Origin: a bacterium
Lineage (GTDB): Bacteria; Patescibacteriota; Doudnabacteria; UBA920
DNA: 64,000 nucleotides
Reading direction: 5' to 3'
Assembly: GCA_016699995.1 (NCBI GenBank)
Contig: CP064996.1
Coordinates: forward strand, 837,747-901,746
Positions within the stretch are counted from its first letter, which is position 1. Every line of letters begins with the position of its first letter. Position numbers and translations under genes: made by a program. Of this stretch, positions 3,672 to 59,852 are shown piece by piece. The notes beneath the pieces were generated by a model, which saw only the letters and a list, made by a program, of their open reading frames with translations, was not told the origin of the DNA and did no database searches.

Positions 3672-4136
3672 TTAGAAAAGCTGATTGTCAACAATCAAAT
3701 TTACAACGATGGTAACTATGGCTGTCGCAATGATTGCCAAGGCCACGCCTCCCAACGTATACATCATCACAGTCTTAGCTTTCTTGATCTGCGCATCGTT
3801 GCCGCGGCCGGTCATATACAAATATCCGCCGTAGATCATGGCTAAAACTGCCCCGATACCGACTACAAAATAAAGCCAGTAAACGATCTTTTTGTAAACC
3901 GCACCTTCGTCGCAATACTTTGGTAGTTCCTTTAGACGGTCTCCGCCGAAACCAGTGCTATATTCATCAATCTGATTCTGCAAACCTTCGCACCCCCAGC
4001 TGTCTACATCATTGCCAGGAGCCGGCGTGGGTGCAGATTGAGCCAAAGCAGATTGGAACAGATTAACTTTCGACGCGCCAATAAAAGCAACAGCTCCGAT
4101 CAAAATTGTCAGTAATAACAAAAATTTTAGTTTCAT
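3672..4136 (-). CDS. secreted protein with C-terminal TrbC/VirB2-like pilin domain (paralog 4 of 7)
   Basis: ORF; signal peptide MKLKFLLLLTILIGAVAFIGA; C-terminal MIYGGYLYMTGRGNDAQIKKAKTVMMYTLGGVALAI. Confidence 0.7.
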   Translation of the reverse strand: MKLKFLLLLTILIGAVAFIGASKVNLFQSALAQSAPTPAPGNDVDSWGCEGLQNQIDEYSTGFGGDRLKELPKYCDEGAVYKKIVYWLYFVVGIGAVLAMIYGGYLYMTGRGNDAQIKKAKTVMMYTLGGVALAIIATAIVTIVVNLIVDNQLF

Positions 4137-4139
4137 ATA

Positions 4140-4994
4140 TTATCTTGCAATAACTCGTTCTATTATCGCCACAATACTAAATGACATTAAGCATACAATC
4201 AACCCGCCGATCGCCCACATCACTGCCTTCTTGCCGTTCGTTAAGCGAGTCTCATTGCCCGAAGACGTAACCATTTGGAAGCCCCCCCAAATAATCACTG
4301 CAACTGCTATCATCGCTGCAAGCATCAGTAAAATATTGATGATGCGAATAATCAACTCGGGCACCGAATCAAATTCCAATGGATTAGAAAATGTGCCAAG
4401 TACAGCATCAAAATCTCCGCCGATCACCTTAACAGAAGAGTCGACGTCAGCACCTCCCCCGCCGGTACCAGAACCGTCGTCATTACCATTGCCGTCTCCG
4501 CTGCCGCCGTCGTCATCATCACCGGTACCTCCACCCCCGCCGCCACCTTCTTGCGGACCTTTGCCGATTTTCAACTTTACAGTTCTTTCCTGATATACGC
4601 TAGAGAAGTCATTGGAACCCAAAGTGTTGTTAGTCTGAAATTTAATGGTATAGTTGCCATTGCCGATACCTAAATTATTTCGCAAGTAAACACTCTTTTC
4701 TGTAGAACCCTGGTTTAGAACGAAGTTATCTGTATTATTGCTCCAGGAATAGGTAAAGCGAGCATTCTTCCCACAAGGATGAAAACCTAAAGAGCTGGCA
4801 GGGACTTTAACATGAACCTGAACCTCGGTGCTTAAATCATCAACCCTTAAATCGATAGAGCCCGTAGGGGCATTAGGATGATAAAGCTTAAAGTCGGCCT
4901 GACAGTTGGATTGGGCAAATATCTTGGTTGGTACTAGCATAGCCGAACCAACATACAGCGCAGCGATAAAGGCAATAATAAATTTATTCAACAT
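4140..4994 (-). CDS. secreted protein with C-terminal TrbC/VirB2-like pilin domain (paralog 5 of 7); Gly/Asp-rich linker
   Basis: ORF; signal peptide; Gly/Asp-rich linker (GGGGGGGTGDDDDGGSGDGNGNDDGSG); C-terminal IIWGGFQMVTSSGNETRLTNGKKAVMWAIGGLIV. Confidence 0.7.
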   Translation of the reverse strand: MLNKFIIAFIAALYVGSAMLVPTKIFAQSNCQADFKLYHPNAPTGSIDLRVDDLSTEVQVHVKVPASSLGFHPCGKNARFTYSWSNNTDNFVLNQGSTEKSVYLRNNLGIGNGNYTIKFQTNNTLGSNDFSSVYQERTVKLKIGKGPQEGGGGGGGTGDDDDGGSGDGNGNDDGSGTGGGGADVDSSVKVIGGDFDAVLGTFSNPLEFDSVPELIIRIINILLMLAAMIAVAVIIWGGFQMVTSSGNETRLTNGKKAVMWAIGGLIVCLMSFSIVAIIERVIAR

Positions 4995-4997
4995 ATT

Positions 4998-5453
4998 TTA
5001 TAGTAAGGACTGAATGATATTGACCAAAGCAAAAGCACTCACAGCCACCACTAAGCCGATGACTGCCCAGGTCAAAGTAGCCTTTGCAGATTTGATCCTC
5101 GATTCATTACCCTGATTGAAGATCAGCATAACTCCTGCGTAGATAATGACTATAGTAGATACCATGGCAATTATCATTAGCAACCAATTGATAAGCTTCG
5201 CGACTAAATCAGAAACATCTCCGCTATTGGAAGGGTTTTTAATGCTTAAAGAACCTTCCCAGTCGACACCATCATAAGTGCGAGCAACATAGCCAGAACC
5301 TTCCTGAGGCTTGGTAGTGGAGGTAGCTGGAGGCTTTACAGTAGAAGTGGCGAGGTCCTTCGGCTTTGGCGGTTCGACCGCGAGCACTTGGACAGGTGCC
5401 AACAAATAAATACTGAAAGAAAGTAATATCAAAATTTTCTTAAGTACTCTCAT
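4998..5453 (-). CDS. secreted protein with C-terminal TrbC/VirB2-like pilin domain (paralog 6 of 7)
   Basis: ORF; signal peptide MRVLKKILILLSFSIYLLAPVQVLA; C-terminal IIYAGVMLIFNQGNESRIKSAKATLTWAVIGLVVAVSAF. Confidence 0.7.
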   Translation of the reverse strand: MRVLKKILILLSFSIYLLAPVQVLAVEPPKPKDLATSTVKPPATSTTKPQEGSGYVARTYDGVDWEGSLSIKNPSNSGDVSDLVAKLINWLLMIIAMVSTIVIIYAGVMLIFNQGNESRIKSAKATLTWAVIGLVVAVSAFALVNIIQSLL

Positions 5454-5457
5454 GATA

Positions 5458-6258
5458 TTAATCAGAATTAATATATTCTCTCGGATTACTGAGGATCAAG
5501 CCCCCATTGCGAATACCAATATTAAGCGAACCTGCAAGAAGGGAGTTAACCAAAACAAACGCAATTGCAACCAACACTAACCCACCCACTGCTCCTCCCA
5601 GCTTTCTTTTTGCTGCTGTGAGCTTAGATTGGTCGCCGCCGTTGAACTGAGAAATGATGATCTGAACCCCTGAGATAATAATAAATAAAACGGCAACCAA
5701 GCCCGCCATCGTAATAAGGTAATTGATGATAATTACCATTGCTCTAAACAGATGAGTGACATTGCATGGAGTATCTACAGTATTACCGCAAATTACAAAA
5801 CCCGACCGGCCGGATTCATCTACATCTTCTCCGGTGTCTTTATCTAAGTTTCCAGGCGGTGGCGTGCCTTCGCCTCCTTGAGGTTTATCCGGAGCCCGAT
5901 AATTATCTTTTATTGCCTTAATCACCGCGGCGCTTGCGCCGGCATCTGTTAAGGCCTTTTCGTCGGCGGAGGTCGGCTTAAAGTCGACTCCAGACTTGTT
6001 AATTTGCTTGATCAGTTCTGCTGCTGGCGGCTTCTTTTCTTTAACCATAGTCAGGACTTTTGACTTAGTCAAAGCCGTACCTGTGTAAGCCTTGCCGGAA
6101 GCTTCTTGAACTTTTGCACCGCCATCCTGCGCTTGAGCCAGCACGTCGCGCGCTGTTCCGGAAGAAATTATTAAAGCAAAAATTAAACACACCGCGGTTA
6201 ACCCCGCTAGCAGAAAAGGCCCGAAACGGCTCTTTAACTTATCATTAATGTACTTCAT
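5458..6258 (-). CDS. secreted protein with C-terminal TrbC/VirB2-like pilin domain (paralog 7 of 7)
   Basis: ORF; N-terminal TM/signal; C-terminal IIISGVQIIISQFNGGDQSKLTAAKRKLGGAVGGLVLVAIAFVLV. Confidence 0.65.
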   Translation of the reverse strand: MKYINDKLKSRFGPFLLAGLTAVCLIFALIISSGTARDVLAQAQDGGAKVQEASGKAYTGTALTKSKVLTMVKEKKPPAAELIKQINKSGVDFKPTSADEKALTDAGASAAVIKAIKDNYRAPDKPQGGEGTPPPGNLDKDTGEDVDESGRSGFVICGNTVDTPCNVTHLFRAMVIIINYLITMAGLVAVLFIIISGVQIIISQFNGGDQSKLTAAKRKLGGAVGGLVLVAIAFVLVNSLLAGSLNIGIRNGGLILSNPREYINSD

Positions 6259-7568
6259 TAAAATAACCTCCCTTGCACCAAGGCGGACGCCTGGCTCTGA
6301 GCTCGGCTTAAGCTGCTATTAACGCTTTGGTTTTTAAACAGAATATTATTTATAGCTTCTCCTATTAATTCATCAAACTTTTCTTCGCTCACTTTATAAA
6401 AAGATTTAGCAGTAAGGTTTGCATGGGCGAAGACACCGATGTCCAAATCCTGGGTTTGCAGTTCTATCAAATCGCGGCGGGAGGATGGCTGCTTATCTTT
6501 GGCGTAATAGGCATCCAAGGCCTGCTTGCTGGTTGCAAATTTTAAGAAGTCCCAAGCATCTGCACTATTTTTACTTTGCTTGCTGACTACTTCTCCAAAA
6601 TAGCTGGCAAAATTCACGTTGGGTTGAGATAGATCAAACTGTGGTACCGGTGCGACATCATAATTTAAGTTTGGAGCCTTTGCATCAATTTGAGACCTAG
6701 TATAACTATAGCCATACAAAAACGCTGCGCGACCATTGGCAAAAGCATCTACCGAATAATCACTTTCCGAATTCCAGGTATAGTTCTGGCTGGACGGATT
6801 GGCAAACGAAGTATAAAACTCCATAGCTTCCACACCCGGATTAACGCTACGTCCATTACGCTGGACACTAGACGCAAAGCGCGGCGTACGACCGTCATTG
6901 GACCAAGGAACAGTGCCAGACTGGAGCATTAACAGGTACACAATATCCACTCCCCGGTTAACATTGTCATGTGTCCCCATTGCTACACCGCTGCGGTCAA
7001 AGTAGCCCTGAGAATTTTGGCTAGAAATTTTTCTCGAATCACGCGCCAGTTCATCCCAGCTTTTGGGCGGGGTGGCAATACCGGCAGTCCCTAATATATC
7101 CTTGTTGTAGTACAAGGCCAGAGAATCAACCCACATAGCAGTGCCGTAAATTTTATCGGCGCGGATAAAATCTGTACTGACCACGTCAACAAAGCCATCT
7201 CTATACTCTTTCATCGTATAAAGCTTATCCGGCGCTGGGGTAACTTTATCTAAATATTCCGGCAGCCAAGTATTATTGATAGAAAAAATATCCGGACCGG
7301 ATCCGCTCGCTAATGCATTCAGAAGATCGCTTTCGTAGTTTTCGATGTTTTTCTTAGTGTACTCGATCGTAACATTCGGCTTAACTTTTTTGTAGGCCTG
7401 AATAAGTGTATTCATCTTGTCGCTGTCAACAAAAGGCTTCCAGATACGAAGCGTTACCTTGCCTGCCTTCTGATTGCCGCCGCCGCAGCCGGCAGAAACC
7501 AAAACTAAACAACCTATCACCAAGGCGAAGGTAAATTTTTTAAAAACAGAGTTTTGATTTTTTTTCAT
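6258..7568 (-). CDS. ABC transporter substrate-binding lipoprotein (extracellular solute-binding protein, family 1-like)
   Basis: ORF 436 aa; signal peptide with lipobox LVSAGC; general solute-binding-protein-like sequence. Confidence 0.7.
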   Translation of the reverse strand: MKKNQNSVFKKFTFALVIGCLVLVSAGCGGGNQKAGKVTLRIWKPFVDSDKMNTLIQAYKKVKPNVTIEYTKKNIENYESDLLNALASGSGPDIFSINNTWLPEYLDKVTPAPDKLYTMKEYRDGFVDVVSTDFIRADKIYGTAMWVDSLALYYNKDILGTAGIATPPKSWDELARDSRKISSQNSQGYFDRSGVAMGTHDNVNRGVDIVYLLMLQSGTVPWSNDGRTPRFASSVQRNGRSVNPGVEAMEFYTSFANPSSQNYTWNSESDYSVDAFANGRAAFLYGYSYTRSQIDAKAPNLNYDVAPVPQFDLSQPNVNFASYFGEVVSKQSKNSADAWDFLKFATSKQALDAYYAKDKQPSSRRDLIELQTQDLDIGVFAHANLTAKSFYKVSEEKFDELIGEAINNILFKNQSVNSSLSRAQSQASALVQGRLF

Positions 7569-34140: not shown

Positions 34141-34216
34141 TGGTGGACCCTACCGGACTTGAACCGGTCGCCTCATCCATGCCATGGATGCGCTCTACCA
34201 GATGAGCTAAGGGCCC
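34141..34216 (-). tRNA. tRNA-Ala (anticodon GGC)
   Basis: 76 nt; G3:U70 in acceptor stem; anticodon loop AUGGCAU; T-loop GGTTCAAGTCC; CCA encoded. Confidence 0.85.
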
Positions 34217-45162: not shown

Positions 45163-45448
45163 GCCCTGGTAGCTCAGTGGTAGAGCAGACGCCTGAATCT
45201 TCGGGCCATGCGAGAGTAATTTTGCAATGCAAATCGGGTGAACTCGGGGAACATCTAAATACATTTAGACAATCCCGAGCCAAGCCAAGAACGGGTTAAT
45301 ACTTCTTGGAAGGTGTAGAGACTAGTAGGTGAGCCCAACAATAATCCTACGGATAGCGCCCGACTTCCTTTCCAAAGGAAGATGATATAGTCCAAAATGA
45401 CGCAGGAAGAGCGTCGTGTCGTCAGTTCAATTCTGACCCGGGGCACCA
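45163..45448 (+). tRNA. tRNA-Phe (anticodon GAA) interrupted by a 211-nt group I intron in the anticodon loop
   Basis: 5' exon GCCCTGGTAGCTCAGTGGTAGAGCAGACGCCU; 3' exon GAAGAGCGTCGTGTCGTCAGTTCAATTCTGACCCGGGGCACCA; exons join to a canonical tRNA. Confidence 0.8.
45195..45405 (+). ncRNA. group I self-splicing intron (tRNA-type, IC3-like)
   Basis: Core elements GGTGTAGAGACTAG and GATGATATAGTCC (P7 strands GACUA/UAGUC), GAGCCAAGCC; guide sequence UCUUCGGGC pairs with both exon ends; terminal G precedes 3' exon. Confidence 0.75.
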
Positions 45449-47656: not shown

Positions 47657-47893
47657 TTATTCAGTCTTGATCATCTCGGTCTGTTCCGCTTCTGGCTGCG
47701 GATGCAGCTGCTTAGGCAAATACGGTATTTGCGTAAACATCAAAGCCAGCAGAGCGGCAATCAAAACCAAATAGTAACCTAACCATTTAACCTGGACGGA
47801 CTTTGGAACAACTTCCTCGTCTTCGGGTTCTTGGTCGCGGGTTATGAGCCTCTTGTATTCAAACCATACACCTAGATTAATAAAGGACGCCAA
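47657..47893 (-). CDS. hypothetical small membrane protein (may be a frame-shifted C-terminal extension of the M50 protease)
   Basis: 78-aa ORF with TTG start, overlaps upstream gene by 17 nt in a different frame. Confidence 0.3.
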   Translation of the reverse strand: MASFINLGVWFEYKRLITRDQEPEDEEVVPKSVQVKWLGYYLVLIAALLALMFTQIPYLPKQLHPQPEAEQTEMIKTE

Positions 47894-48647
47894 AACCGAT
47901 GTCGAGCATGTTAAGCCAGAAAGGCTGAGTGCTAAACCCAGTGAGCATTAGAATCATCATCAATCCCTGACAGACAAAGGCAGTAATCATCTTGAAAGTT
48001 GGATTAACTTTAAGATCAGCAATAATAATCAGCCAAATGAGCAGAATGTGAGGCTGGTGAACAACTATAGTCAGAGCTAATAGCAAAACAAATCCTACCC
48101 ATTTAAACCAGTCTCCAATAACCTGGGTAACTCTTCCACCATCCAAAGGACGAATCGGAATAAGATTAAACAGGTTAATGAATGCCGCTAAGTAACTTAG
48201 TATCAGCAATAATTCGTACTGAGTTGGCAGAACTGCCCAGATACCAAACAGTACCAAAGCAGAGATACCGCCTAGTAAGGGACCACCAATCCCGACAAAA
48301 GCTTCATTCTGCTTGCCTTTGAACTCTGGGGCAAAGATTGCCGCGCCCAACATTGGTATAAATACCGGAGCAGAGGTGGGCAACTTCTTAATTTTTAACG
48401 CAATCACATGCCCCATCTCATGGATGAACAGCATAATCACAAATCCAATAGCAAACCAGATTCCCCAAATAAAAGAATAAACAAAGGCGGACAGGGCCAT
48501 AGTAATCAAGGTCACAAATGGCTTCAAGAACTTCACGGCTTTAACGGCTTTCAGGGCCGTCAAAATTATTTTTGACTTAGACAAAAGGATCAGGGGTAAC
48601 AACAGCCATTTCCAGAATGGCTTCTTTTCTTCTAATTGATTCTCCAA
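47877..48647 (-). CDS. M50-family membrane zinc metalloprotease (site-2-protease-like)
   Basis: 256-aa polytopic membrane protein with HEMGH zinc motif (FIHEMGHVIALK). Confidence 0.75.
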   Translation of the reverse strand: MENQLEEKKPFWKWLLLPLILLSKSKIILTALKAVKAVKFLKPFVTLITMALSAFVYSFIWGIWFAIGFVIMLFIHEMGHVIALKIKKLPTSAPVFIPMLGAAIFAPEFKGKQNEAFVGIGGPLLGGISALVLFGIWAVLPTQYELLLILSYLAAFINLFNLIPIRPLDGGRVTQVIGDWFKWVGFVLLLALTIVVHQPHILLIWLIIIADLKVNPTFKMITAFVCQGLMMILMLTGFSTQPFWLNMLDIGFGVLY

Positions 48648-48828
48648 AACATTTTCCCTCCTTAAATTATTTTCGCACTTCTTCTAAACACGACAAGCTA
48701 TCACATCTAAAACTGAACCAGTAGTCAAACCCCTGTTAAATAAGCGCAAAAGGGTTCCGATTCGCCCCTTGGGCAAGCCAAAAAAAAGGTCTTTTGGCTT
48801 AAATAAGGCGTAAATGAACTAAAAAGAC

Positions 48829-48857
48829 TTGTAATTAAGCCAGATTTAAGGTATAAT
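48829..48857 (+). promoter_or_regulatory. sigma70-like promoter candidate (TTGTAA, 17-nt spacer, TATAAT) followed by a hairpin + T-run
   Basis: Near-consensus hexamers about 240 nt upstream of the 49098 ORF; hairpin ACTGC-TATT-GGCAGT + TTTTTT about 15 nt downstream of -10. Confidence 0.3.
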
Positions 48858-49097
48858 AGGTATGTAAGGTACTGCTATTGGCAGTCTTTTTTAATAGCAA
48901 AGACCCCTCAATATATATGGCAATTAGCCGAATATATTAGGAAATTTGCGAAACTAGTCTAAAAAAGCGCCAAAGTTGCAGTAACCCCAAAGGTCACTAA
49001 TTTATCATTCAATCCTCTTTTTTCGAATACAAAGGCTTTCCCTTTCTATAAGACCCTTTTGCCGAGAAATAGAGGTTAAGGAGTTGCCACTGAATAA

Positions 49098-49772
49098 ATG
49101 ACAGCTCGCTTATCCTTAAGTTCTGCAGTTGAGAAAGTAATCTTAATGGTCGCTTTCTTACCAGTAGTCACTATGGTTTATCCAGAGACTGCTGCCGCAG
49201 CTCTTGCTGTACAGAACTCAGGTGAAAAAGCTCTAGTTTTTCAAGTCAACTCAAAACAAAAAACAGAAATCATTCCTGCTACTACTGGTCTATCTTATGA
49301 TGAGTTAGTTCAGAACGATATCTTAGTTAAGAAAGTAAAGGCGTATTTGGAATCGAAAGGTTCCCCTTTGGCTATCTACTCTGATGAAATCGTAAAGCAA
49401 CCTCAGTGGCAACGCGCCTTAGCTATCAGTTTCGTCGAAAGCAACTTCGGTAAACGTTGTGCCAACAACAACTGTAGTGGTATAGGTGTAAGCCCTAGTC
49501 ATCCATCTTGGCGTCGTTATGCAACGAAGCTGGATTGGTTTAAGGACATGAGCGCTTTATTAGAAAAGCCTACTTATAAGCAAAAGTATACTACTTGTGC
49601 CAAAATGAAAGGCGTATACGTAGTACCTGGTTCCGCTCGATGGGTAAATGGTTGTAATAAGGTAAGCGAAGAATTGCTTGCTATTACAGCTCAAGCTGAA
49701 CAAGAACGTTTAGCTTTAGCCAACCAACCAAATGTATCCGTTGCAGTTCACGAACTAGCCTTGGTAAAATAA
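49098..49772 (+). CDS. hypothetical secreted protein
   Basis: 224-aa ORF with N-terminal hydrophobic segment; no family recognised. Confidence 0.5.
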   Translation: MTARLSLSSAVEKVILMVAFLPVVTMVYPETAAAALAVQNSGEKALVFQVNSKQKTEIIPATTGLSYDELVQNDILVKKVKAYLESKGSPLAIYSDEIVKQPQWQRALAISFVESNFGKRCANNNCSGIGVSPSHPSWRRYATKLDWFKDMSALLEKPTYKQKYTTCAKMKGVYVVPGSARWVNGCNKVSEELLAITAQAEQERLALANQPNVSVAVHELALVK

Positions 49773-49793
49773 GCTAGGAATTGAATTGAAATT

Positions 49794-49824
49794 AAAAGCC
49801 CTCGCCGAAAGGCGAGGGTTTTAA
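49794..49824. terminator. bidirectional hairpin terminator
   Basis: GCCCTCGCC-GAAA-GGCGAGGGT flanked by A and T runs, between convergent genes. Confidence 0.6.
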
Positions 49825-49840
49825 AATAACTGGTTAGTCA

Positions 49841-50149
49841 TTAATGAACGGTTTCGGAGCCATACTTATCTTTCCATTCACTTTGAAGCTTATCAAGTTC
49901 GGATGTAAGATTATCCAACAATTCATCAGCAGCTTGTTTATCAATCATTTCATCAGATTCGGCAGCTGCAAGCCTATCATTGGCTTTATCAATTTCGGCC
50001 TGTAATGATTCAATTTTTTGCCGCAGCTGCACCTTGTGAAGTTCAGCTGATTCCTGTTCCTGGTCGAGATACTGAGGATTTCCTCTAACTTCAGAACCAA
50101 TGCTCATATGTTCTCTTTCCATATAATAAAGGTTAATAATTACCTGCAT
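49841..50149 (-). CDS. hypothetical coiled-coil protein
   Basis: 102-aa ORF, charged heptad-like sequence. Confidence 0.4.
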   Translation of the reverse strand: MQVIINLYYMEREHMSIGSEVRGNPQYLDQEQESAELHKVQLRQKIESLQAEIDKANDRLAAAESDEMIDKQAADELLDNLTSELDKLQSEWKDKYGSETVH

Positions 50150-50332
50150 TATAGCAGAAAAAATTAAGATCAGCTTTCTTGAATAAATGCACAGGTTCAG
50201 TTAAAATTATATAGTTATCTTAAGAAGCGGGGCGGTTTACCGCATCCGCGACCAATACTTTAGTAAGTGAGTGACGGCTTTGCCGATACGAACGAGGAGT
50301 GGACTGGCTTGCCAGATCCACTACCAAGATAT

Positions 50333-50407
50333 GGTGCGGTGGCGAAGTGGTAACGCTGGGGTCTGCAAAACCTCGATGCGCGGGTTCGATTCCCGCCCGC
50401 ACCTCCA
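50333..50407 (+). tRNA. tRNA-Cys (anticodon GCA)
   Basis: 75 nt; anticodon loop CUGCAAA; T-loop GGTTCGATTCC; discriminator U; CCA encoded. Confidence 0.85.
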
Positions 50408-50413
50408 CTAAAT

Positions 50414-50500
50414 GCCTGGGTGGCGGAACTGGTATACGCACAGGACTTAAAATCCTGGGCCCGAAAGGGATTGAGGGTTCGATTCCCTCCTCAGGCACCA
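50414..50500 (+). tRNA. tRNA-Leu (anticodon UAA)
   Basis: 87 nt; long variable arm; anticodon stem CAGGA/TCCTG, loop CUUAAAA; discriminator A; CCA encoded; hairpin terminator follows. Confidence 0.85.
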
Positions 50501-50602
50501 TAGAAAACACAGTGATCGCTGTGTTTTTTTATTTTTGCCTTATATACAGCAAAGTATTTTTAGGAACTTGATTGCCTCGAGCGTTAGGAATAAAATAAAC
50601 AT

Positions 50603-51865
50603 ATGGAAAATAATACAAACACAACCAACCCAAATAACGTCGAGCCGGTATTAAATTCAGTATCTAGTACAATAGAATCATCTGCACGAGAGCCAGCAAC
50701 CCCAGAACCAGCCGCGAGTGATACAAAAAAAATTGTTATCACCAGTTTAATTACGGCGCTGATCACAACCCTAGTAGTAGGCTATGTTTTTAATCCATCT
50801 CAAAATAACAGGACCAGCGTTAGAACAGTTTCGGAATCAGAAAACGCCGTTGTCGACGCCGTAGAAGCTGCCAACCCTGCCGTGGTAGCTATAACTATTT
50901 CTAAAAACGTGCCAACTTACGAAAGATTTTATCAGAATATACCTGGTCCATTTGGTGGTTTTCAAATCCCACAACTTCGCCAGAACGGAACTGAGTTGCA
51001 AGAGATTGGCGGGGGTTCTGGTTTCTTAGTTTCGAGCGACGGTTACATCGTTACCAACAAACATGTTGTTGCAGATACAACTGCACAGTACACAGTCTTT
51101 ACCAATGACGGTAAAAAATATGAAGCTAAAGTTATCGATCGCGACCCGGTGCAAGATTTAGCGGTAATGAAAATTGACGGCAATAACTTCCCGTCATTAA
51201 ACTTTGCAGATTCCGACCAGGTTAAATTAGGACAAACCGTAATAGCGATTGGGAATGCGCTAGCGGAATTCCGCAATACCGTCTCTTTAGGCATCGTATC
51301 CGGTTTATCCCGTTCCATAACAGCTTCTGACGGAAGAGGTAATTCCGAATCATTGGATCAGCTAATCCAAACCGATGCCGGTATTAACTCGGGCAACTCC
51401 GGAGGGCCTTTGCTTAATTTATCTGGTGAAGTAATTGGAGTTAACGTAGCAGTTGCTAACGGAGCCAACAGCATTGGGTTTGCACTAAGCAGTAACAGCG
51501 TAAAAAACATTGTTGAATCCGTAAAAACGAACGGCAAAATTATTCGCCCGTACTTAGGGGTACGTTACACTGAGATCAACAAGGAACTACAGGAACAAAA
51601 TAATCTATCTGTCGATTACGGCGTACTGGTAACAGGCGGCAGAACAGAATCGGAACTTGCAGTGTTGCCAGGCTCGCCAGCAGATAAAGCCGGGATTGTC
51701 GCCAATGATATCATTCTCGAGATAGATGGACAGAAGATAGACGAAGGCAATAGACTCCCTAGCATCATGAGCAAGAAAAAAGTAGGGGATAGAGTAACGC
51801 TCAAACTGCTCAGCAAAGGCAGCGAAAAAATGATTACCGTGATACTAGAAGAAATGAAGTTATAG
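50603..51865 (+). CDS. htrA: HtrA/DegP-family serine protease with PDZ domain
   Basis: Trypsin-like motifs incl. GNSGGPLLN; N-terminal TM anchor; C-terminal PDZ-like region. Confidence 0.85.
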   Translation: MENNTNTTNPNNVEPVLNSVSSTIESSAREPATPEPAASDTKKIVITSLITALITTLVVGYVFNPSQNNRTSVRTVSESENAVVDAVEAANPAVVAITISKNVPTYERFYQNIPGPFGGFQIPQLRQNGTELQEIGGGSGFLVSSDGYIVTNKHVVADTTAQYTVFTNDGKKYEAKVIDRDPVQDLAVMKIDGNNFPSLNFADSDQVKLGQTVIAIGNALAEFRNTVSLGIVSGLSRSITASDGRGNSESLDQLIQTDAGINSGNSGGPLLNLSGEVIGVNVAVANGANSIGFALSSNSVKNIVESVKTNGKIIRPYLGVRYTEINKELQEQNNLSVDYGVLVTGGRTESELAVLPGSPADKAGIVANDIILEIDGQKIDEGNRLPSIMSKKKVGDRVTLKLLSKGSEKMITVILEEMKL

Positions 51866-51941
51866 TTAACAACAAGTTTATCTAAACTTGGTAACTCCTT
51901 AAATTGGATTTGACCTGCTGTATGCAATAGTTATGTTGCGT

Positions 51942-52015
51942 GGGGCGGGTCCCTGGTTGGGCAGGATAGACTCGTCACCCTATCCCAGCGGGTTCGATTC
52001 CCGTCCGCTCCACCA
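51942..52015 (+). ncRNA. tRNA-like element with canonical acceptor stem (G3:U70), T-arm and CCA but non-canonical anticodon arm
   Basis: 74 nt; GGGGCGG..GCGGGTTCGATTCCCGT CCGCTCC A CCA; central region folds as 4-6 bp stem with 10-nt loop; partial inverted copy at about 52057..52080. Confidence 0.4.
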
Positions 52016-52082
52016 CTCTTGAAAAAGAGTTCATATGCATGGTATGATGTGCATGACGAGTCTATCCTAAACAGGACCCAAT

Positions 52083-52104
52083 AAAACCGCCGAAAGGCGG
52101 TTTT
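52083..52104. terminator. bidirectional hairpin terminator downstream of rpsA
   Basis: AAACCGCC-GAAA-GGCGGTTT. Confidence 0.55.
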
Positions 52105-52119
52105 ATCATTGCATACGGA

Positions 52120-53400
52120 TTATTCAGCTTTTTCTTCGGTAGCTTCTGGAGAAGCTTCTTCTGTTTTAGGCTCTGCCTCAGCGACGGGAGCTTCTTCCTT
52201 AGCTTCTTTCTTTGGAGCTTCTGTTAACTGCTTAATAGACAGGCCCAAGCGGTGTTCTGCCGGCTCGATAGAGATGACCTTGAACTCGCGCTCTTCACCT
52301 TCTTTAACAACTTCGGACGGATCTTTTACTTCATCGTGAGATAGCTCTACTAAATGAGCCAAGCCCTGAATATCCTGGTCCAATTCTACGAAGACGCCGA
52401 AAGGCATAATCTTAGAAACTTTACCTTTAACAATTTGGCCGAGCTGATACTTCTTTACAGATTCCTGCCATGGATCGTTTTGCAATTGCTTGATAGACAA
52501 AGACACGCGGCCTTTTTCGATAGCGATTACTTTAGCTTGTACAGTATCGCCGACCTTAAATAGATCTTTAGGATTTTCGATACGCTGCCATGCCAACTCG
52601 GAGATGTGAACCAAACCTTCTAGTTCATCAAACTTCACAAATACGCCGAAGTCCACAATACCGGTAATCTGTCCTTTAACAATATCGCCGATTTTAAGCA
52701 CAGACAGGTTCTTTTGCAGTTCTTCTTCGAAGACTGCTTTTTCGGATACGATCAACTTTTCTTCTTCTGGGTCTGCAGTGATCACCTGAACATTGAAGTT
52801 GGAACCGACATAGCTGTTCAAGATTCCCAAAATACGGTTCTTATCTCCTTCTTCTACGCGAGGATAGTGTTCGATAGACAACTGAGATACCGGCAAGAAA
52901 CCAGTCACATTGTTGATTTCGATCATCAAACCGCCTTTGTTTGCAGCCAAGATCTTAGTGCTAACAACTTCGCGGCTTTCCATAAGGTCTTGTAACTTCT
53001 GCCATACGCGTTCGTGTCCGGCTTGGCGCAAAGACAATTCTACGTTGCCGTCGCGGTTTTCTGTTTCTACCACAGCTGCTTCGATTGTGTCGCCCGGCTT
53101 AAGGGAATTTAGAGTCGCTTGATCATCATATAATTCGCGGCCGCGAACTACGCCTACGCCGTAGCCAGCTAAATCTAAGTAAACTTCATTCTTGGTTACA
53201 GAAATGATCTTACCTTCGATCATATCGCCGGGCTTTAGCACGCGAATCTCTGCACCGCTTTGCAGCAAGTCGCTCATGGTTTGCGCATTGCTGTCGCCAG
53301 TGACAGCACTAGGCACAACCTGCTGGGCCGGAGCTTCTGCTACTGTATTGTTGTCGCCCAAATTTCCTGTTGTGTTTTCTGCTAAGTTTTCTTCTGACAT
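52120..53400 (-). CDS. rpsA: 30S ribosomal protein S1
   Basis: 426 aa with four S1 RNA-binding repeats and acidic tail. Confidence 0.9.
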   Translation of the reverse strand: MSEENLAENTTGNLGDNNTVAEAPAQQVVPSAVTGDSNAQTMSDLLQSGAEIRVLKPGDMIEGKIISVTKNEVYLDLAGYGVGVVRGRELYDDQATLNSLKPGDTIEAAVVETENRDGNVELSLRQAGHERVWQKLQDLMESREVVSTKILAANKGGLMIEINNVTGFLPVSQLSIEHYPRVEEGDKNRILGILNSYVGSNFNVQVITADPEEEKLIVSEKAVFEEELQKNLSVLKIGDIVKGQITGIVDFGVFVKFDELEGLVHISELAWQRIENPKDLFKVGDTVQAKVIAIEKGRVSLSIKQLQNDPWQESVKKYQLGQIVKGKVSKIMPFGVFVELDQDIQGLAHLVELSHDEVKDPSEVVKEGEEREFKVISIEPAEHRLGLSIKQLTEAPKKEAKEEAPVAEAEPKTEEASPEATEEKAE

Positions 53401-53710
53401 TTATTAATTCTTTCCTAATATATGAAAATAAATTGATTAAGCCTTTAAACAATATTGCCAGCGGAACAGGTGTCGGCAAAATAAAAACAACGTCTAGACG
53501 TTGGTTAAAATCTAAAAACTATTCATCATATATTAATTATTAAACACGCCTATTACTTGGACTCACCGGGGGTTAAGATTAAAATTTGCTTAGTTAGCAG
53601 GCTCAAGTTTAGAGCCGGCAGACAAGCTAGGCGCGTGCGCCGGTAAGTAGAGAAATTATAGCGGTTTTGTGGTGATTTGTAAAGGGCGGGGAAATAAAAA
53701 AACCAGCTTT

Positions 53711-54265
53711 TTAACAAGTCTGGTTTGAGTCAGTATAATCCGACAACTTACCGAAGTTTAAACCAAAGGCTGACGCCTCCAGCAAGGGCGGGTATACATC
53801 ACGAAAAATAATATAAGCAATTTCCTCGCGAAGCTTAGGTATTTTCTTAAGCAGAACTGCATCTCCCGGATTCTTCTCTGCTTTAGCAATCGCGAAAGTA
53901 AGTTCCAGAGCTTTTTCATCGTAGGCCTTGCAGCACCTCACAATCATTCTGCGAAAATCTTCCCCATACTTAACCATCCAAAGATCACGATGCTTTTGAC
54001 TATGGCTTAACGGCGGAGGAAAACCAGTACATTTTTTGAAACTATAAGCATCAAGACTTCTGCCAACAGCCATCACAAGAGGTAAGCCAATGATCGCAAC
54101 CAAGACCAAGCGAAATGCAAGGCTGAGAAGAGTAGGTTCTGCTTTCATTAAGCTTAAACCAAAGTCAGTAAGAGCAAGTAAAAAGCTTAGGCCAATAATT
54201 ACAACAAGAGTTGCTAAAGTAATCAACCACAATGCCATGACAGTAAGATTGTTTATCAATTTCAT
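53711..54265 (-). CDS. hypothetical membrane protein
   Basis: 184-aa ORF, two N-terminal TM helices; terminator-like hairpin downstream. Confidence 0.45.
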   Translation of the reverse strand: MKLINNLTVMALWLITLATLVVIIGLSFLLALTDFGLSLMKAEPTLLSLAFRLVLVAIIGLPLVMAVGRSLDAYSFKKCTGFPPPLSHSQKHRDLWMVKYGEDFRRMIVRCCKAYDEKALELTFAIAKAEKNPGDAVLLKKIPKLREEIAYIIFRDVYPPLLEASAFGLNFGKLSDYTDSNQTC

Positions 54266-54296
54266 ACTACCTCCTATATTGACTATTCTTTAATCC

Positions 54297-54863
54297 TCAT
54301 CTCCCCCAGTCGTTTGGGTCATAAATATAATACCTTTCTTTTTGTTCAGGACTACAATTAGAGTGGTAATCGATCCTTTGGGGGATATCTGTCCACTTGA
54401 TAATCTCTTCGTTAACGGGAATTGACCTGTCCCCATTCCAACACCACACACCCTGTTCGTATAGGAGTATGCCAAAGTCAGGCTCATTAATACCTCGATC
54501 ACGATAGACTAAATACCATCCTGTAGTCTTTGGTTGTTTCTTATAGTGCCAACCCAATTTTGGTATTTCACACCAAAAAGCCACTGATGAGGTTATGTCG
54601 TTATCGGCCGTTGGTTTCCAAACATTGTACCAGCGTGAATATGGCATTCGTGCCAAATCATGACCAGACCCGTCTGACCTAAAAAAATTAGCGACACTTA
54701 ATTCAAGAGTATCGATCTTAGTGCCACACTGACAATCGTCTGTCCTAACACCAAACATAACCAAGTATGGTCCGTTTTTTCGAGGGGGATCAGCTGCACC
54801 TATCCATTTCGAGTTTTGCATATAACTCCTCCTAAGGAAATTTCTAACATTAAATAGTGCCAT
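54297..54863 (-). CDS. hypothetical Trp-rich protein
   Basis: 188-aa ORF; no family recognised. Confidence 0.45.
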   Translation of the reverse strand: MALFNVRNFLRRSYMQNSKWIGAADPPRKNGPYLVMFGVRTDDCQCGTKIDTLELSVANFFRSDGSGHDLARMPYSRWYNVWKPTADNDITSSVAFWCEIPKLGWHYKKQPKTTGWYLVYRDRGINEPDFGILLYEQGVWCWNGDRSIPVNEEIIKWTDIPQRIDYHSNCSPEQKERYYIYDPNDWGR

Positions 54864-54917
54864 AAATATGCCGATAAGTCAAGTGCGTACCATACTAAAA
54901 AATGGTATAATTCCCTT

Positions 54918-55547
54918 ATGCAAATCCAATATTTCGGCCTTTCTAGCTTCAAAATTACGACTAAGGAAGCCACTATAATTACCGACCCATTCGATAAAGA
55001 ATCCGGTCTGACTCCGCCCCGCGGTGCAGCCGATATCCTGATTCTGGCCGAAAAAGCCAACAAGCTCTATAACGCCGTATCCGGAGTTTCGGGGGAGCCT
55101 TTTTTAATTAACGATCCTGGCGAATACGATATAAAAGGAGTGACCGTAACCGGAATTCCATTGGAGCAAGACCCTGGCCGCTACGTAACAGTTTACCTCA
55201 TTGAAAGCGAAGATATCGCCATTCTCAACTTAACCCACATCCGCGAGTGGAATATCAAAGAGAATGATTTAGAAGACTTGGGAGAAATCGACATCCTCAT
55301 TTTGCCGGTTGGCAGCAACAGCGTTCTAACTCCTAAAATTGCTTCGCAAATTGTTCATGACATCCAGCCAAAAATTGTCATTCCGTCTCATTACGAAATT
55401 CCTGGGCTCAAACTGCCAAACGAAAAAATTGACGTGTTCTTAAAGCAATACGGCGCTAAGTCTGAGCCGATCGAAAAACTTAACATCAAGAAAAAAGATT
55501 TAACGGAAGAAAAAACTCAGATGATATTATTAGACCCGCTTCGCTAA
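54918..55547 (+). CDS. MBL-fold metal-dependent hydrolase
   Basis: 209 aa; beta-lactamase-fold-like pattern (DILILAE.., HYE..). Confidence 0.6.
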   Translation: MQIQYFGLSSFKITTKEATIITDPFDKESGLTPPRGAADILILAEKANKLYNAVSGVSGEPFLINDPGEYDIKGVTVTGIPLEQDPGRYVTVYLIESEDIAILNLTHIREWNIKENDLEDLGEIDILILPVGSNSVLTPKIASQIVHDIQPKIVIPSHYEIPGLKLPNEKIDVFLKQYGAKSEPIEKLNIKKKDLTEEKTQMILLDPLR

Positions 55548-55592
55548 ATACAAAGACAAGAAAGTGTTCACACATTTTTATTCACCACGAAT

Positions 55593-55814
55593 ATGAAAAA
55601 GATTATCGAAAACATCCGTCAAAAACCTGACCATCACAAAAACCGAATAATATTGATTATTACCGGCTCTGTTGCGTTTGTACTAGTGATCATATGGATC
55701 ATAATCGGCATCCCCGATAGGGAAGGCAGGAGCACAGACGTAATAGACGACTTTACAACGAATGTAGAAGAAAGCAAAGATACTTTACCGAAATTATTTG
55801 AAAGCAATAACTAA
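55593..55814 (+). CDS. hypothetical small membrane protein
   Basis: 73-aa ORF with one TM helix, immediately upstream of gyrA. Confidence 0.4.
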   Translation: MKKIIENIRQKPDHHKNRIILIITGSVAFVLVIIWIIIGIPDREGRSTDVIDDFTTNVEESKDTLPKLFESNN

Positions 55815-58297
55815 TGGCCAAAAAGAATCCTAGTGACAGCGAAATTGCTGTTGCAGACAACAATTTAGGAGTGATTAAGCAGCGCTTCCTCGAACAGGAA
55901 ATGCAGGAATCATATTTGGATTACGCGATGAGCGTAATCGTTTCCCGCGCTTTACCAGACGTGCGCGATGGACTTAAGCCGGTTCACCGCCGCATTTTAT
56001 ACGCAATGCATTCCATGGGTCTGCGCTCCGGTGGAAAAACCACTAAGTCAGCAAAAGTAGTTGGTGAAGTATTGGGTAAATACCACCCTCACAGCGATAC
56101 CGCAGTATACGACACCATGGTTGGTTTGGCGCAAGTGTTTAGTATGCGCTACCCATTGGTTATCGGCCAGGGTAACTTTGGCTCTATGGATGGAGACAAT
56201 GCCGCGGCCATGCGTTACACAGAAGCCAAAATGAGCCCGTTTGCCGAAGCTATTTTAGAAGATATCGAAAAAGATACTGTTGATTTCCGCCCTAACTACG
56301 ACGCTACCGAAAAGGAACCAACAGTGCTTCCTGGCAAGCTGCCAAACTTGTTACTAAACGGTACCTTAGGCATTGCCGTAGGTATGGCCACCGACATCCC
56401 TCCTCATAACCTCGTAGAAGTAGCGGATGCTATCACTGCTGTTATAGACAACCCGGAAGTCTCTATCGATGAGCTTACCGATATTGTAAAGGGTCCAGAC
56501 TACCCAACCGGCGGCATTATTTATGACCGCAAAGCCATTAAAGAAGCTTATACCACCGGCAAAGGCGGTATTGTCACGCGCGGCAAGACCGAGATCGAAG
56601 AAATGGCCAATGGCCAAATGCGGATCCTGATTACCGAAATCCCTTATCGCGTAAATAAAGCGACCATGCTCGAAAAGATCGCATTGTTAGTTCAAGAAAA
56701 GAAACTTGAAGGCATTAAAGACGTGCGTGACGAAAGCGACAAAGATGGCGTGCGCGTAGTTGTCGAACTTAAAAAAGGCGCGCTGGCCAATAAAATCTTA
56801 AACCAGTTGTTTAAGTTCACCCAGCTGCAAGACACTTTCCACATGAATACCCTGGCCTTGGTAGATGGAATCGAACCGCACGTACTGAATTTAAAAACTA
56901 TTTTAGAAAAATACATCGAACATCGTCAGGTTGTTGTTCGCCGCCGTACAGCTTACGAGCTTCGCAAGGCAGAAGAACGCGCACATGTATTAGAAGGCTT
57001 AAAAATCGCTCTCGACAACATCGATGCAGTCATTAAAACCATTCGCGCAAGCAAAGACCGTGTTGAGGCGCATGCCAATTTAGTAAAGAAATTTAAGTTA
57101 TCAGATATTCAGGCCAGCGCCATCCTCGACATGCGCTTGCAAACCTTAGCCGGACTAGAACGCAAGAAAATTGAAGACGAGCTGAATGAAAAGCTAAAAC
57201 TAATCAAAGAGCTAAAAGGGATTTTAGCTTCCGAAAAGAAAATTCTGGGAATCATCAAAGACGAAGTTACCGAACTAAAGGACAAATTTGGCGACGAACG
57301 CCGCACCCAAATTGTTGCTCAGGGCACTGGCGACTTTAGTGCCGAGGATTTGATCCCGGAAGATAATGTAATCATCTCTACTACCAAGTCAGGCTACATC
57401 AAACGCCAGTCCCCAGACACTTATCGCCAGCAAAGCCGTGGAGGCAAAGGTGTTATTGGCCAGACTCTTAAAGAAGAAGATGTGGTGGATTCCGTACTCT
57501 CTGCTTCTACCCACGATGACATCATGTTCTTCACCAACAAAGGGCGTTTGCTTGTAACCAAAGCTTACGAGCTGCCAGAGAGCAGCCGCACTAGCAAAGG
57601 CCAAGCTCTAGTTAATTTCCTGCAGTTGGCACCAGAGGAATTTGCAACAGCCGTTCTGGCTTTGTCTAAAAAGAGTGAAGCCCAGTTCCTAGTTATGGCC
57701 ACCCGCAATGGCTTAATTAAGAAGGTAAAGCGCGATGAATTCGTTAAAGTCCGCAAATCCGGCATTATCGCCATTAACCTCAAGCCAGATGATGAACTGC
57801 GATGGGTTAAAACCACTTCTGGAGAAGATGAAATCATGCTTTCGACCGAAGACGGCCAGGCAATCCGCTTTAAAGAATCTGATGTCCGCCCAATGGGCAG
57901 AACCGCCAGCGGCGTAACCGGCGTAAAGCTGCGCAAAGGCGACCATGTAATTTCTATGGATATCATTACCAAAGACATGGAAGGACAAGGTAGGGAAGTA
58001 TTGGTTATTACTCAACATGGCTTAGGAAAGAAAACTCCGATCAAAGACTATAAAATTCAAAAGCGTTCGGGCAGCGGCATCAAGACTGTAAAGATTACTG
58101 ATAAGACCGGCAAGATCGTCTCGATGTGCATCTTGAGCAAAACTGATGAAGACAAAGACTTGCTGCTTATCTCTAAACAAGGCCAAACTATTCGCACCCC
58201 GCTAAAGACAATTTCTACACTCGGACGCGCCACTCAGGGCGTAAGAGTCATGAAGTTGAACGGTGATGATACGGTAGCCTCTGCTGCAGTCGTATAA
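55814..58297 (+). CDS. gyrA: DNA gyrase subunit A
   Basis: 827 aa; [28 protein letters not shown], active-site region, C-terminal beta-pinwheel repeats. Confidence 0.97.
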
Positions 58298-59775: not shown

Positions 59776-59852
59776 GGGCGTGTAGCTCAGTTGGTTAGAG
59801 CGCCAAGCTTATACCTTGGTGGTCCATGGTTCAAGTCCATGCACGCCCACCA
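59776..59852 (+). tRNA. tRNA-Ile (anticodon UAU)
   Basis: 77 nt; anticodon stem CCAAG/CTTGG, loop CUUAUAC; T-loop GGTTCAAGTCC; discriminator A; CCA encoded. Confidence 0.8.

Follow-up and report, generated by a model that had tools for sequence, protein, structure and literature searches.

The DNA considered here, hereafter the window, is a 64,000-nt stretch of a Patescibacteria chromosome (Candidate Phyla Radiation, CPR; 42% G+C; contig CP064996.1, positions 837,747 to 901,746). In it, a gene for an HtrA-like protease (50603-51865, +) and a convergent gene for S1 (52120-53400, -) are separated by a spacer of 254 bp; the flanking proteins are QQS22897.1 and QQS22898.1, and the best named S1 homologues are assigned to 'Patescibacteria group' and 'Candidatus Doudnabacteria'. 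Inside this spacer lies an element of 74 nt (51942-52015, +; GGGGCGGGTCCCTGGTTGGGCAGGATAGACTCGTCACCCTATCCCAGCGGGTTCGATTCCCGTCCGCTCCACCA), which is in all likelihood a stand-alone gene for a miniature transfer-messenger RNA (tmRNA) without a coding sequence (CDS), in which the two halves of the tRNA-like domain (TLD) are joined by a 6-bp hairpin and the resume codon, the tag frame, and the pseudoknots are missing. In bacteria, tmRNA and SmpB form the main ribosome-rescue system, and it is the TLD part of tmRNA that SmpB and EF-Tu bind, whereas G3:U70 and A73 suffice for recognition by alanyl-tRNA synthetase (AlaRS). The features of the locus are as follows.

51910-51937, + strand: promoter-like P1 (TTGACC, 16 nt, TATGTT; 9/12 consensus positions), predicted start at about G1-G3 of the element
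51942-52015, + strand: probable TLD-only mini-tmRNA, 74 nt (ARAGORN coordinates, Rfam RF00023, fold, pair table)
51942-51948 with 52005-52011, + strand: acceptor stem with G3:U70 (pair table)
51954-51962, + strand: D-loop analogue TGGTTGGGC (alignment to the tmRNA model)
51964-51969 with 51980-51985, + strand: short P2-like hairpin, 10-nt loop at 51970-51979 (fold)
51988-52004, + strand: T arm
52012 and 52013-52015, + strand: discriminator A and CCA
52016-52029, + strand: small hairpin CTCTTGAAAAAGAG, directly 3' of the CCA and overlapping the -35-like box of promoter P2 (predicted folds)
52019-52048, + strand: promoter-like P2 (TTGAAA, 18 nt, TG-TATGAT; 10/12), a better consensus match than P1, directly 3' of the CCA
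52054-52068, + strand: antisense segment A, TGACGAGTCTATCCT, perfect complement of element positions 22-36 (51963-51977)
52073-52079, + strand: antisense segment B, AGGACCC, which follows segment A and is the complement of GGGTCC at element positions 6-11 (51947-51952; minimum free energy structures)
52081-52110, both strands: bidirectional intrinsic terminator (ATAAAACCGCC GAAA GGCGGTTTTAT), common to the element and the convergent S1 gene

The structure of the element had been described accurately in an initial annotation of this DNA. As claimed there, the acceptor stem is paired at 7/7 positions and contains G3:U70 (pair table and fold), the T arm GCGGG-TTCGATT-CCCGT is present (pair table), and a discriminator A and an encoded CCA complete the 3' end; the stem with a 10-nt loop in the anticodon region is likewise real, consisting of 6 bp (GGATAG/CTATCC) and the loop ACTCGTCACC (fold and pair table). 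The predicted fold energy of the 74 nt is -31.1 kcal/mol, and the 171-nt unit of element and trailer has a folding z-score of -6.06. A TLD-shaped pattern matches the window once, with 0.00 matches expected from shuffles, and no further copies of the element are found in the window. This is no assembly artefact, since an independent Logan assembly (L001, SRR11674018) contains the identical 169 nt.

In a permissive search over 301 nt, the Rfam tmRNA model RF00023 aligns to the element at 21.1 bits (E 7.4e-7) from model position 1 to 374, with 28 nt in place of 328 internal positions; no other family of the clan, tRNA included, ranks as high. The 5' part, GGGGCGG-GUCC-CUGGUU..., is aligned to the tmRNA acceptor strand and D-loop and the 3' part to the T arm and CUCCACCA, and mycobacteriophage PegLeg has an annotated tmRNA of 403 nt whose 3' end matches the last 28 nt of the element at 93% identity. 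The D-loop analogue, which has no D stem, can be aligned to that of the tmRNA model (general form GGNUUCGAC), but it reads CUGGUUGGGC, which is 1 nt shorter and unlike UUCGAC (RF00023 alignment). Given this alignment, that the 28 nt between the TLD halves leave no room for a resume codon, a tag frame with its stop, or pseudoknots, and that ARAGORN reports neither a tmRNA nor a tag peptide on the element, it is best regarded as a TLD-only homologue of tmRNA. The halves stand in standard order and are joined by a short hairpin without a frame, the resemblance to tmRNA is closer than that to tRNA, and the architecture is the same as that of 62-72-nt minis in phages. The initial annotation had set tmRNA aside since the element is too short and has no tag ORF; that dismissal does not stand, as tmRNA is the best-supported identity, the model being aligned end to end with its interior deleted, and ORF-less tmRNA genes consisting of the TLD only are already documented (PMC11915505, PMC4131195). 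Its alternative term, 'tRNA mimic', was right in spirit, but an identity related to tmRNA is better supported. Two further candidates were rejected. For a permuted two-piece tmRNA (RF04321), the gene order is standard instead, and this model reaches 12.6 bits over the T arm and trailer (20.8 bits in the L137 homologue described below); for a tag ORF in the trailer (AWYDVHDESILNRTQ followed by a stop), there is no corresponding frame in L137.

Homologues come from one metagenome pattern scan, which returned two loci, L136 and L137. The L137 homologue (5434-5506; GGGGATGGCTCTGGTTGGGCAGGGCCGGCTTATCATCTGGCTTCTGGGGGTTCGATTCCCCTCATCTCCACCA) scores 35.2 bits against the tmRNA model and belongs to candidate division WWE3, as judged from MreB relatives; a unit of the same type is present in L139 (4692-4764; 95% MreB identity to L137), with three substitutions, all in loops or linkers. 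When the stems of the window and of L137/L139 are compared through hand-made pair tables, acceptor pairs 5 and 6 are C-G and G-C in the former and A-U and U-A in the latter, T-stem pair 2 is turned from C-G into G-C, and the P2-like hairpin, though unrelated in sequence, still comprises 5-6 bp, with an 8-nt loop (CTTATCAT) in L137 in place of the 10-nt loop of the window. No difference between the window and L137/L139 is seen in G3:U70, in the T loop, or in the D-loop CTGGTTGGGCAGG, so that the UUGGGC-type variant of the D-loop is kept in both WWE3 loci. Because the stems are compensated and these elements identical, a decaying pseudogene is disfavoured, and the earlier suggestion of a tRNA pseudogene is unsupported, every stem being kept in L137 through compensatory changes.

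The other locus, L136 (1830-1901, -), contains a third TLD-only mini, of 72 nt and more canonical, on a metagenome contig with 57% G+C; it is aligned end to end with the tmRNA model, interior deleted, at 49.5 bits, above the gathering score of 47, and lies at the 5' edge of an ORF resembling DDE transposases (weak IS1/IS240 matches). Two other scans gave nothing of use: all 120 matches listed for a loose TLD pattern in genome contigs are tRNA-Tyr (GGA-GGGG...CCCCTCCACCA), and the CPR-type D-loop returned two chance matches inside coding sequences in one viral scan and none in the other. Within the window, the element matches, for 30 nt at its 3' end (51988-52017, taking in the T arm, the 3' strand of the acceptor, and CCA), the 3' end (50380-50409) of a tRNA-Cys(GCA) gene 1.5 kb upstream at 90% identity, the acceptor stems differing only at pair 3:70, along with the discriminator. 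This likeness could be coincidence or gene conversion; it is so taken because in L137 the acceptor stem differs and the D-loop is the same.

The element is patchily distributed. It is absent from the HtrA/S1 spacer in 13 relative loci anchored on S1 (81-95% S1 identity), the spacer being about 90 bp in the closest relatives except in L011-L013, where a 95-aa ORF lies between the genes, and the sole sequence that these element-less spacers have in common with the window is the terminator. Likewise, the syntenic spacer is empty in WWE3 relatives with 90%, 86%, and 77% MreB identity. Relative to empty sites, the insertion measures about 165-250 bp. In L010 (92% S1 identity), a decayed orthologue of the trailer without a TLD is found at 3846-3939 (nhmmer E 1.9e-4; GACGAttTtTtTCT..AaAACCC), with the hairpin, GACGATTTTTTTCT, AAAACCCAATAAA, and the terminator in this order, which suggests that the TLD part was lost by deletion in the L010 lineage. 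An AbiEii gene adjoins one of the homologues. The element is thus present in at least two CPR classes but in narrow clades only; it is accessory and probably mobile. An att-site remnant, as initially proposed, is unsupported in the window: both acceptor strands are present, there is no integrase or island at the locus, and the flanking gene order (tRNA-Cys, tRNA-Leu, HtrA, S1, gyrA) is collinear with that of relatives.

The trailer downstream of the CCA is the second conserved part of the unit. The inverted copy noted initially exists, as a 15-nt inverted repeat of 100% complementarity (51963-51977 and 52054-52068) with 76 nt between the arms, but it starts about 40 nt past the CCA rather than about 45, and the term 'partial copy' does it less justice than that of an antisense segment which is conserved and covaries. 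In L137/L139, the trailer contains TGATAAGCCGGCC, a perfect 13-nt complement of TLD positions 23-35, and GAGCCA, complementary to TLD positions 6-11, and then runs into a terminator; the distance between the arms is 75 nt there versus 76 nt in the window. Of the 12 aligned positions past a shared AGG, six have changed on both arms between the window and L137/L139, and complementarity is kept. In the window and the L137 locus alike, the duplex of the TLD 5' half with the trailer is stronger than those of 1000/1000 shuffled trailers, and folding predictions favour the masked state over a folded TLD with a separately folded trailer by 11.0 (window) and 7.5 (L137) kcal/mol, in cis and in trans. 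As far as these sequences tell, the masking helix covaries, and the antisense trailer is conserved in both lineages despite its different sequence. No conserved ORF is common to the trailers of the window and L137/L139. The L136 trailer has no such complement (757/1000 shuffles do as well), and none of the phage minis (74 viral contigs, 57 unique sequences; 59 minis with at least 80 nt of trailer entered the test) has one beyond the shuffle expectation, so by sequence comparison the trailer complement is specific to this CPR subfamily.

Promoter-like signals precede both parts. Upstream of the L137 homologue, an extended -10-like sequence (TGTTAGAAA) ends 7 nt before G1 (direct reading). Downstream of the CCA, the predicted start of promoter P2, at about 52055, is the first base of the antisense segment; in L137/L139, TTGACA stands at 3 nt past the CCA and is followed by 17 nt, TAATTT, 6 nt, and GATAAGCC..., such that a start 7 nt past the -10 box is predicted at the first antisense base in both lineages (GACGAG... 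and GATAAG...). The spacer between the P2 boxes is not conserved across lineages. This arrangement suggests a separate antisense RNA of about 55-70 nt that would end at the same terminator as the element unit, a terminator that is also kept in relatives without the element.

In sum, the element is best read as a rare and probably regulated variant of tmRNA. The overall explanation that we favour, at about even odds, is that it acts as a gated, accessory, alanine-chargeable decoy for SmpB and ribosomes, and a detailed mechanism can be offered somewhat more tentatively. Transcription from P1 would start at G1 and run through to the shared terminator. The TLD would fold first and, after its 3' end is freed at the CCA, could receive alanine from AlaRS and associate with EF-Tu and SmpB, as any TLD can. 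Lacking an mRNA-like domain, such an RNA could provide neither tagging nor a stop codon and would thus compete as a decoy for SmpB and stalled ribosomes. The trailer would restrain it, either in cis, within read-through transcripts, or in trans, through an RNA of about 55 nt from promoter P2, pairing with the 5' half to unfold the TLD and thereby gate its activity. The module would be accessory and patchy, not the core rescue RNA of the cell.

Several points weigh against this interpretation. The element score of 21.1 bits is below the Rfam tmRNA gathering score of 47. Binding by SmpB is not assured: in place of the UUCGAC found in the D-loop of nearly all tmRNAs, the element has UUGGGC, and no GGAC precedes its T arm. 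Covariation is supported by two independent lineages only, the promoters are consensus matches only, and the masked fold, if dominant, might keep the RNA from ever being tRNA-like in vivo. In addition, across the 64-kb window and 239 kb of CPR loci, tblastn with E. coli SmpB gives no match and no standard ssrA is found, so that a decoy acting beside a normal tmRNA rests on a phylum-wide prior.

Among the alternatives, tag-less rescue survives best, though it is still unlikely. Here, the alanylated TLD would enter the stalled A site with SmpB and accept the peptide, another factor would resolve the complex, and the trailer would be a precursor or processing element. All elements for charging and A-site entry are intact, CPR genomes are reduced, CDS-less tmRNAs are conserved along with SmpB in mitochondria, tag-less rescue having been proposed for those of jakobids, and one Patescibacteria species is already listed as possibly without a tag frame (PMC11915505). 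However, the element is missing from its locus in very close relatives, hardly to be expected of a core function, and a beneficial RNA has no obvious need of a conserved mask that destroys its fold. Standard tmRNA is moreover found in 78% of Patescibacteria genomes (5,252/6,765, a figure limited by the completeness of metagenome-assembled genomes; PMC11915505, Supplementary Table 2), and a TLD-only-like molecule strongly inhibits tmRNA in E. coli, perhaps via SmpB titration, as recounted in PMC4131195 with reference to Mao et al. 2009. For these four reasons, the decoy is favoured over tag-less rescue.

A two-RNA module resembling toxin/antitoxin or abortive infection systems, with the mini-tmRNA as 'toxin' and the antisense RNA from the post-CCA promoter as its counterpart, is a less probable extension of the decoy. 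The mini-tmRNA would tie up SmpB, AlaRS, or EF-Tu, or else stalled ribosomes, and so bring trans-translation to a halt; the antisense RNA would neutralise it by unfolding its 5' half, and loss of the antisense, for example, when a phage shuts off host transcription, would release the decoy. There is a general analogy to type I/III/VIII toxin-antitoxin systems and to sponges from tRNA 3' external transcribed spacers, in that a structured RNA stands beside a complementary RNA in a compact, self-contained, and patchy unit; unlike in RNA-RNA toxin/antitoxin pairs, the element and trailer are in tandem on the same strand and not overlapping antisense. If true, a tmRNA fragment would here have given rise to a regulatory or defence module of a new class, made of RNA only.

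To a similarly low degree, the locus may be a non-functional relic, that is, a decaying tmRNA derivative with an internal deletion or mobile-element debris, the inverted repeat being a scar of fold-back DNA repair. The absence from close relatives, the partial decay of the module in L010, the score below the gathering threshold, the off-consensus D-loop, and a T-loop/acceptor/CCA fragment 130 nt upstream in a variable region of L137/L139 would all fit. Against it stand the retention of one architecture in two CPR classes, compensatory double substitutions in three stems of the TLD, with six more in the trailer helix and an arm spacing of 75-76 nt, the intact G3:U70, A73, CCA, and T loop, and the correct placement of promoter-like and terminator signals.

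An unusual tRNA is very improbable. It would have an anticodon loop of 8-10 nt and serve as a quadruplet-decoding or frameshift suppressor with alanine, or as an alanine donor for cell-wall or lipid aminoacylation. Alanine identity is indeed set by the acceptor stem alone, and ARAGORN reports a 4-base anticodon, CGUC. Yet this call requires a mismatched stem besides and is returned as 'tRNA-???' (cgtc). Moreover, the element is not among the nine tRNA matches at the gathering score (RF00005, at least 29 bits) and tmRNA wins the clan competition, U8 and a tRNA-type D stem are absent, the 'anticodon' loop is conserved neither in sequence nor in length in L137, and no Fem/MprF-type gene occurs among the eight neighbouring ORFs (47877-58297) compared with Pfam. 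A purely DNA-level element, in which the arms are terminal or recombination repeats of a unit resembling miniature inverted-repeat transposable elements and the tRNA-like fold is incidental, fits the patchy distribution, the compact insertion of about 165-250 bp, and the DDE transposase-like ORF beside the L136 mini, but it is just as improbable, as the left arm lies inside the TLD with the first five acceptor-stem nucleotides outside that arm, L010 has the right arm and not the left so that excision would be imprecise, no target-site duplication is seen, and the arms differ wholly between lineages while the TLD motifs needed for RNA function are conserved.

The TLD-only ('standard, no CDS') architecture to which the element belongs is already known. 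In the 2025 tmRNA database, it accounts for nine of 97,179 unique sequences, including two plastid genes of about 65 bp in Mallomonadaceae and those of phage DS6A, Nasuia, and one Patescibacteria species, '9FT-COMBO-53-11 sp001772805', in three genomes (PMC11915505). The TLD-only tmRNA of mycobacteriophage DS6A is also documented elsewhere (PMC4131195); in JN698994, it was not found by ARAGORN or regular expressions. The element resembles these variants (DS6A and 9FT-COMBO being compared by their descriptions) in having TLD halves in standard order within less than 100 nt, G3:U70, ACCA, a hairpin replacing the mRNA-like domain, no tag frame, and a closer fit to the model of tmRNA than to that of tRNA. 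It differs from them in its UUGGGC rather than UUCGAC D-loop, in the absence of GGAC before the T arm, and in its conserved antisense trailer, possibly with a separate antisense RNA, whereas the phage minis tested have no trailer complement; unlike the phage variants, it is chromosomal in CPR. In common with standard one-piece tmRNA (RF00023), it has the 5' acceptor strand GGGG, the T arm, the 3' CUCCACCA, and alanine identity, as well as an analogue of the D-loop that departs from the consensus, but no more than 6 bp of P2 is left, the resume codon, PK1-4, and the tag ORF with its stop are gone, and it measures 74 versus about 350 nt. As in jakobid and oomycete mitochondrial tmRNA (RF02544; Jacob et al. 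2004, as cited in PMC11915505), the mRNA-like region is lost and a chargeable TLD kept, but those RNAs are organellar and usually circularly permuted, whereas the element is bacterial, in standard order, and provided with an antisense trailer. Finally, G3:U70, A73, CCA, and the T arm are shared with tRNA-Ala, whereas U8, the D stem, and a 7-nt anticodon loop with an alanine anticodon are not; a normal tRNA-Ala(GGC) is present elsewhere in the window (34141-34216). What appears to be new is a CPR subfamily with a UUGGGC D-loop, a conserved self-complementary trailer, and possibly a tandem antisense RNA.

A strict pattern with the canonical D-loop recovers TLD-only minis of 62-86 nt from IMG/VR viral contigs (74 contigs, L142-L215; 57 unique sequences). 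Their D-loop is the canonical GGNTTCGAC, GGAC usually precedes the T arm, and 7/7 acceptor pairs are present in 72/74; ARAGORN calls seven of the 74 and leaves 67 uncalled. Since curated databases list very few, TLD-only minis may be much commoner in phages than recognised.

In WWE3, a conserved non-coding region of about 380 nt is found downstream of an HTH_17 gene, with or without the mini-tmRNA (L137 4925-5303; L139 about 4130-4560; L138 13005-13559; L218 about 6030-6300). It starts with GGCCCC...GGGGCC, shares the motif TTTTCAAGGT, may contain a tag-like frame (ANKYQAQFGY and a stop in L137, AEYQAQFW and a stop in L139), and in L137/L139 ends in a fragment composed of the T-loop 3' half, acceptor 3' strand, and CCA (CGATTCC(C)GTACGTCCACCA). 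This region, ending ...CGATTCCGTACGTCCACCA, was rejected as a standard tmRNA: it has no Rfam match, no 5' acceptor strand, and no complete T arm, and it also occurs in L138 and L218, both without the mini.

Other tRNA genes of the window are of interest in themselves. The anticodon loop of tRNA-Phe(GAA) (45163-45448, +) is split by a group I intron (Rfam Intron_gpI, 45185-45417, 56.9 bits) into exons at 45163-45197 and 45406-45448, both 100% identical to the intron-less tRNA-Phe of the relative L002 (13787-13861), and ARAGORN makes no call there. A tRNA-Ile with the anticodon UAU, an uncommon bacterial route to AUA decoding, is present at 59776-59852 (+) and at the same locus in all relatives with enough flanking sequence (L001-L007). 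The tRNA-Leu(UAA) and tRNA-Cys genes are merely 6 nt apart in the window (50333-50500), unlike in three relatives that bear an HNH_3 endonuclease-like ORF between them (L009 6278-6754, L011 5639-6115, and L012 5309-5785).

Curated data contain very few natural TLD-only RNAs, whose roles are unsettled, and genes of this kind are systematically under-annotated, given that ARAGORN either calls them 'tRNA-???' or misses them. The presence of one on a CPR chromosome, with an antisense mask that covaries, suggests that a decoy of trans-translation is under regulation by cells or their mobile elements, and it opens the working of tagless or inhibitory TLD RNAs to direct tests.

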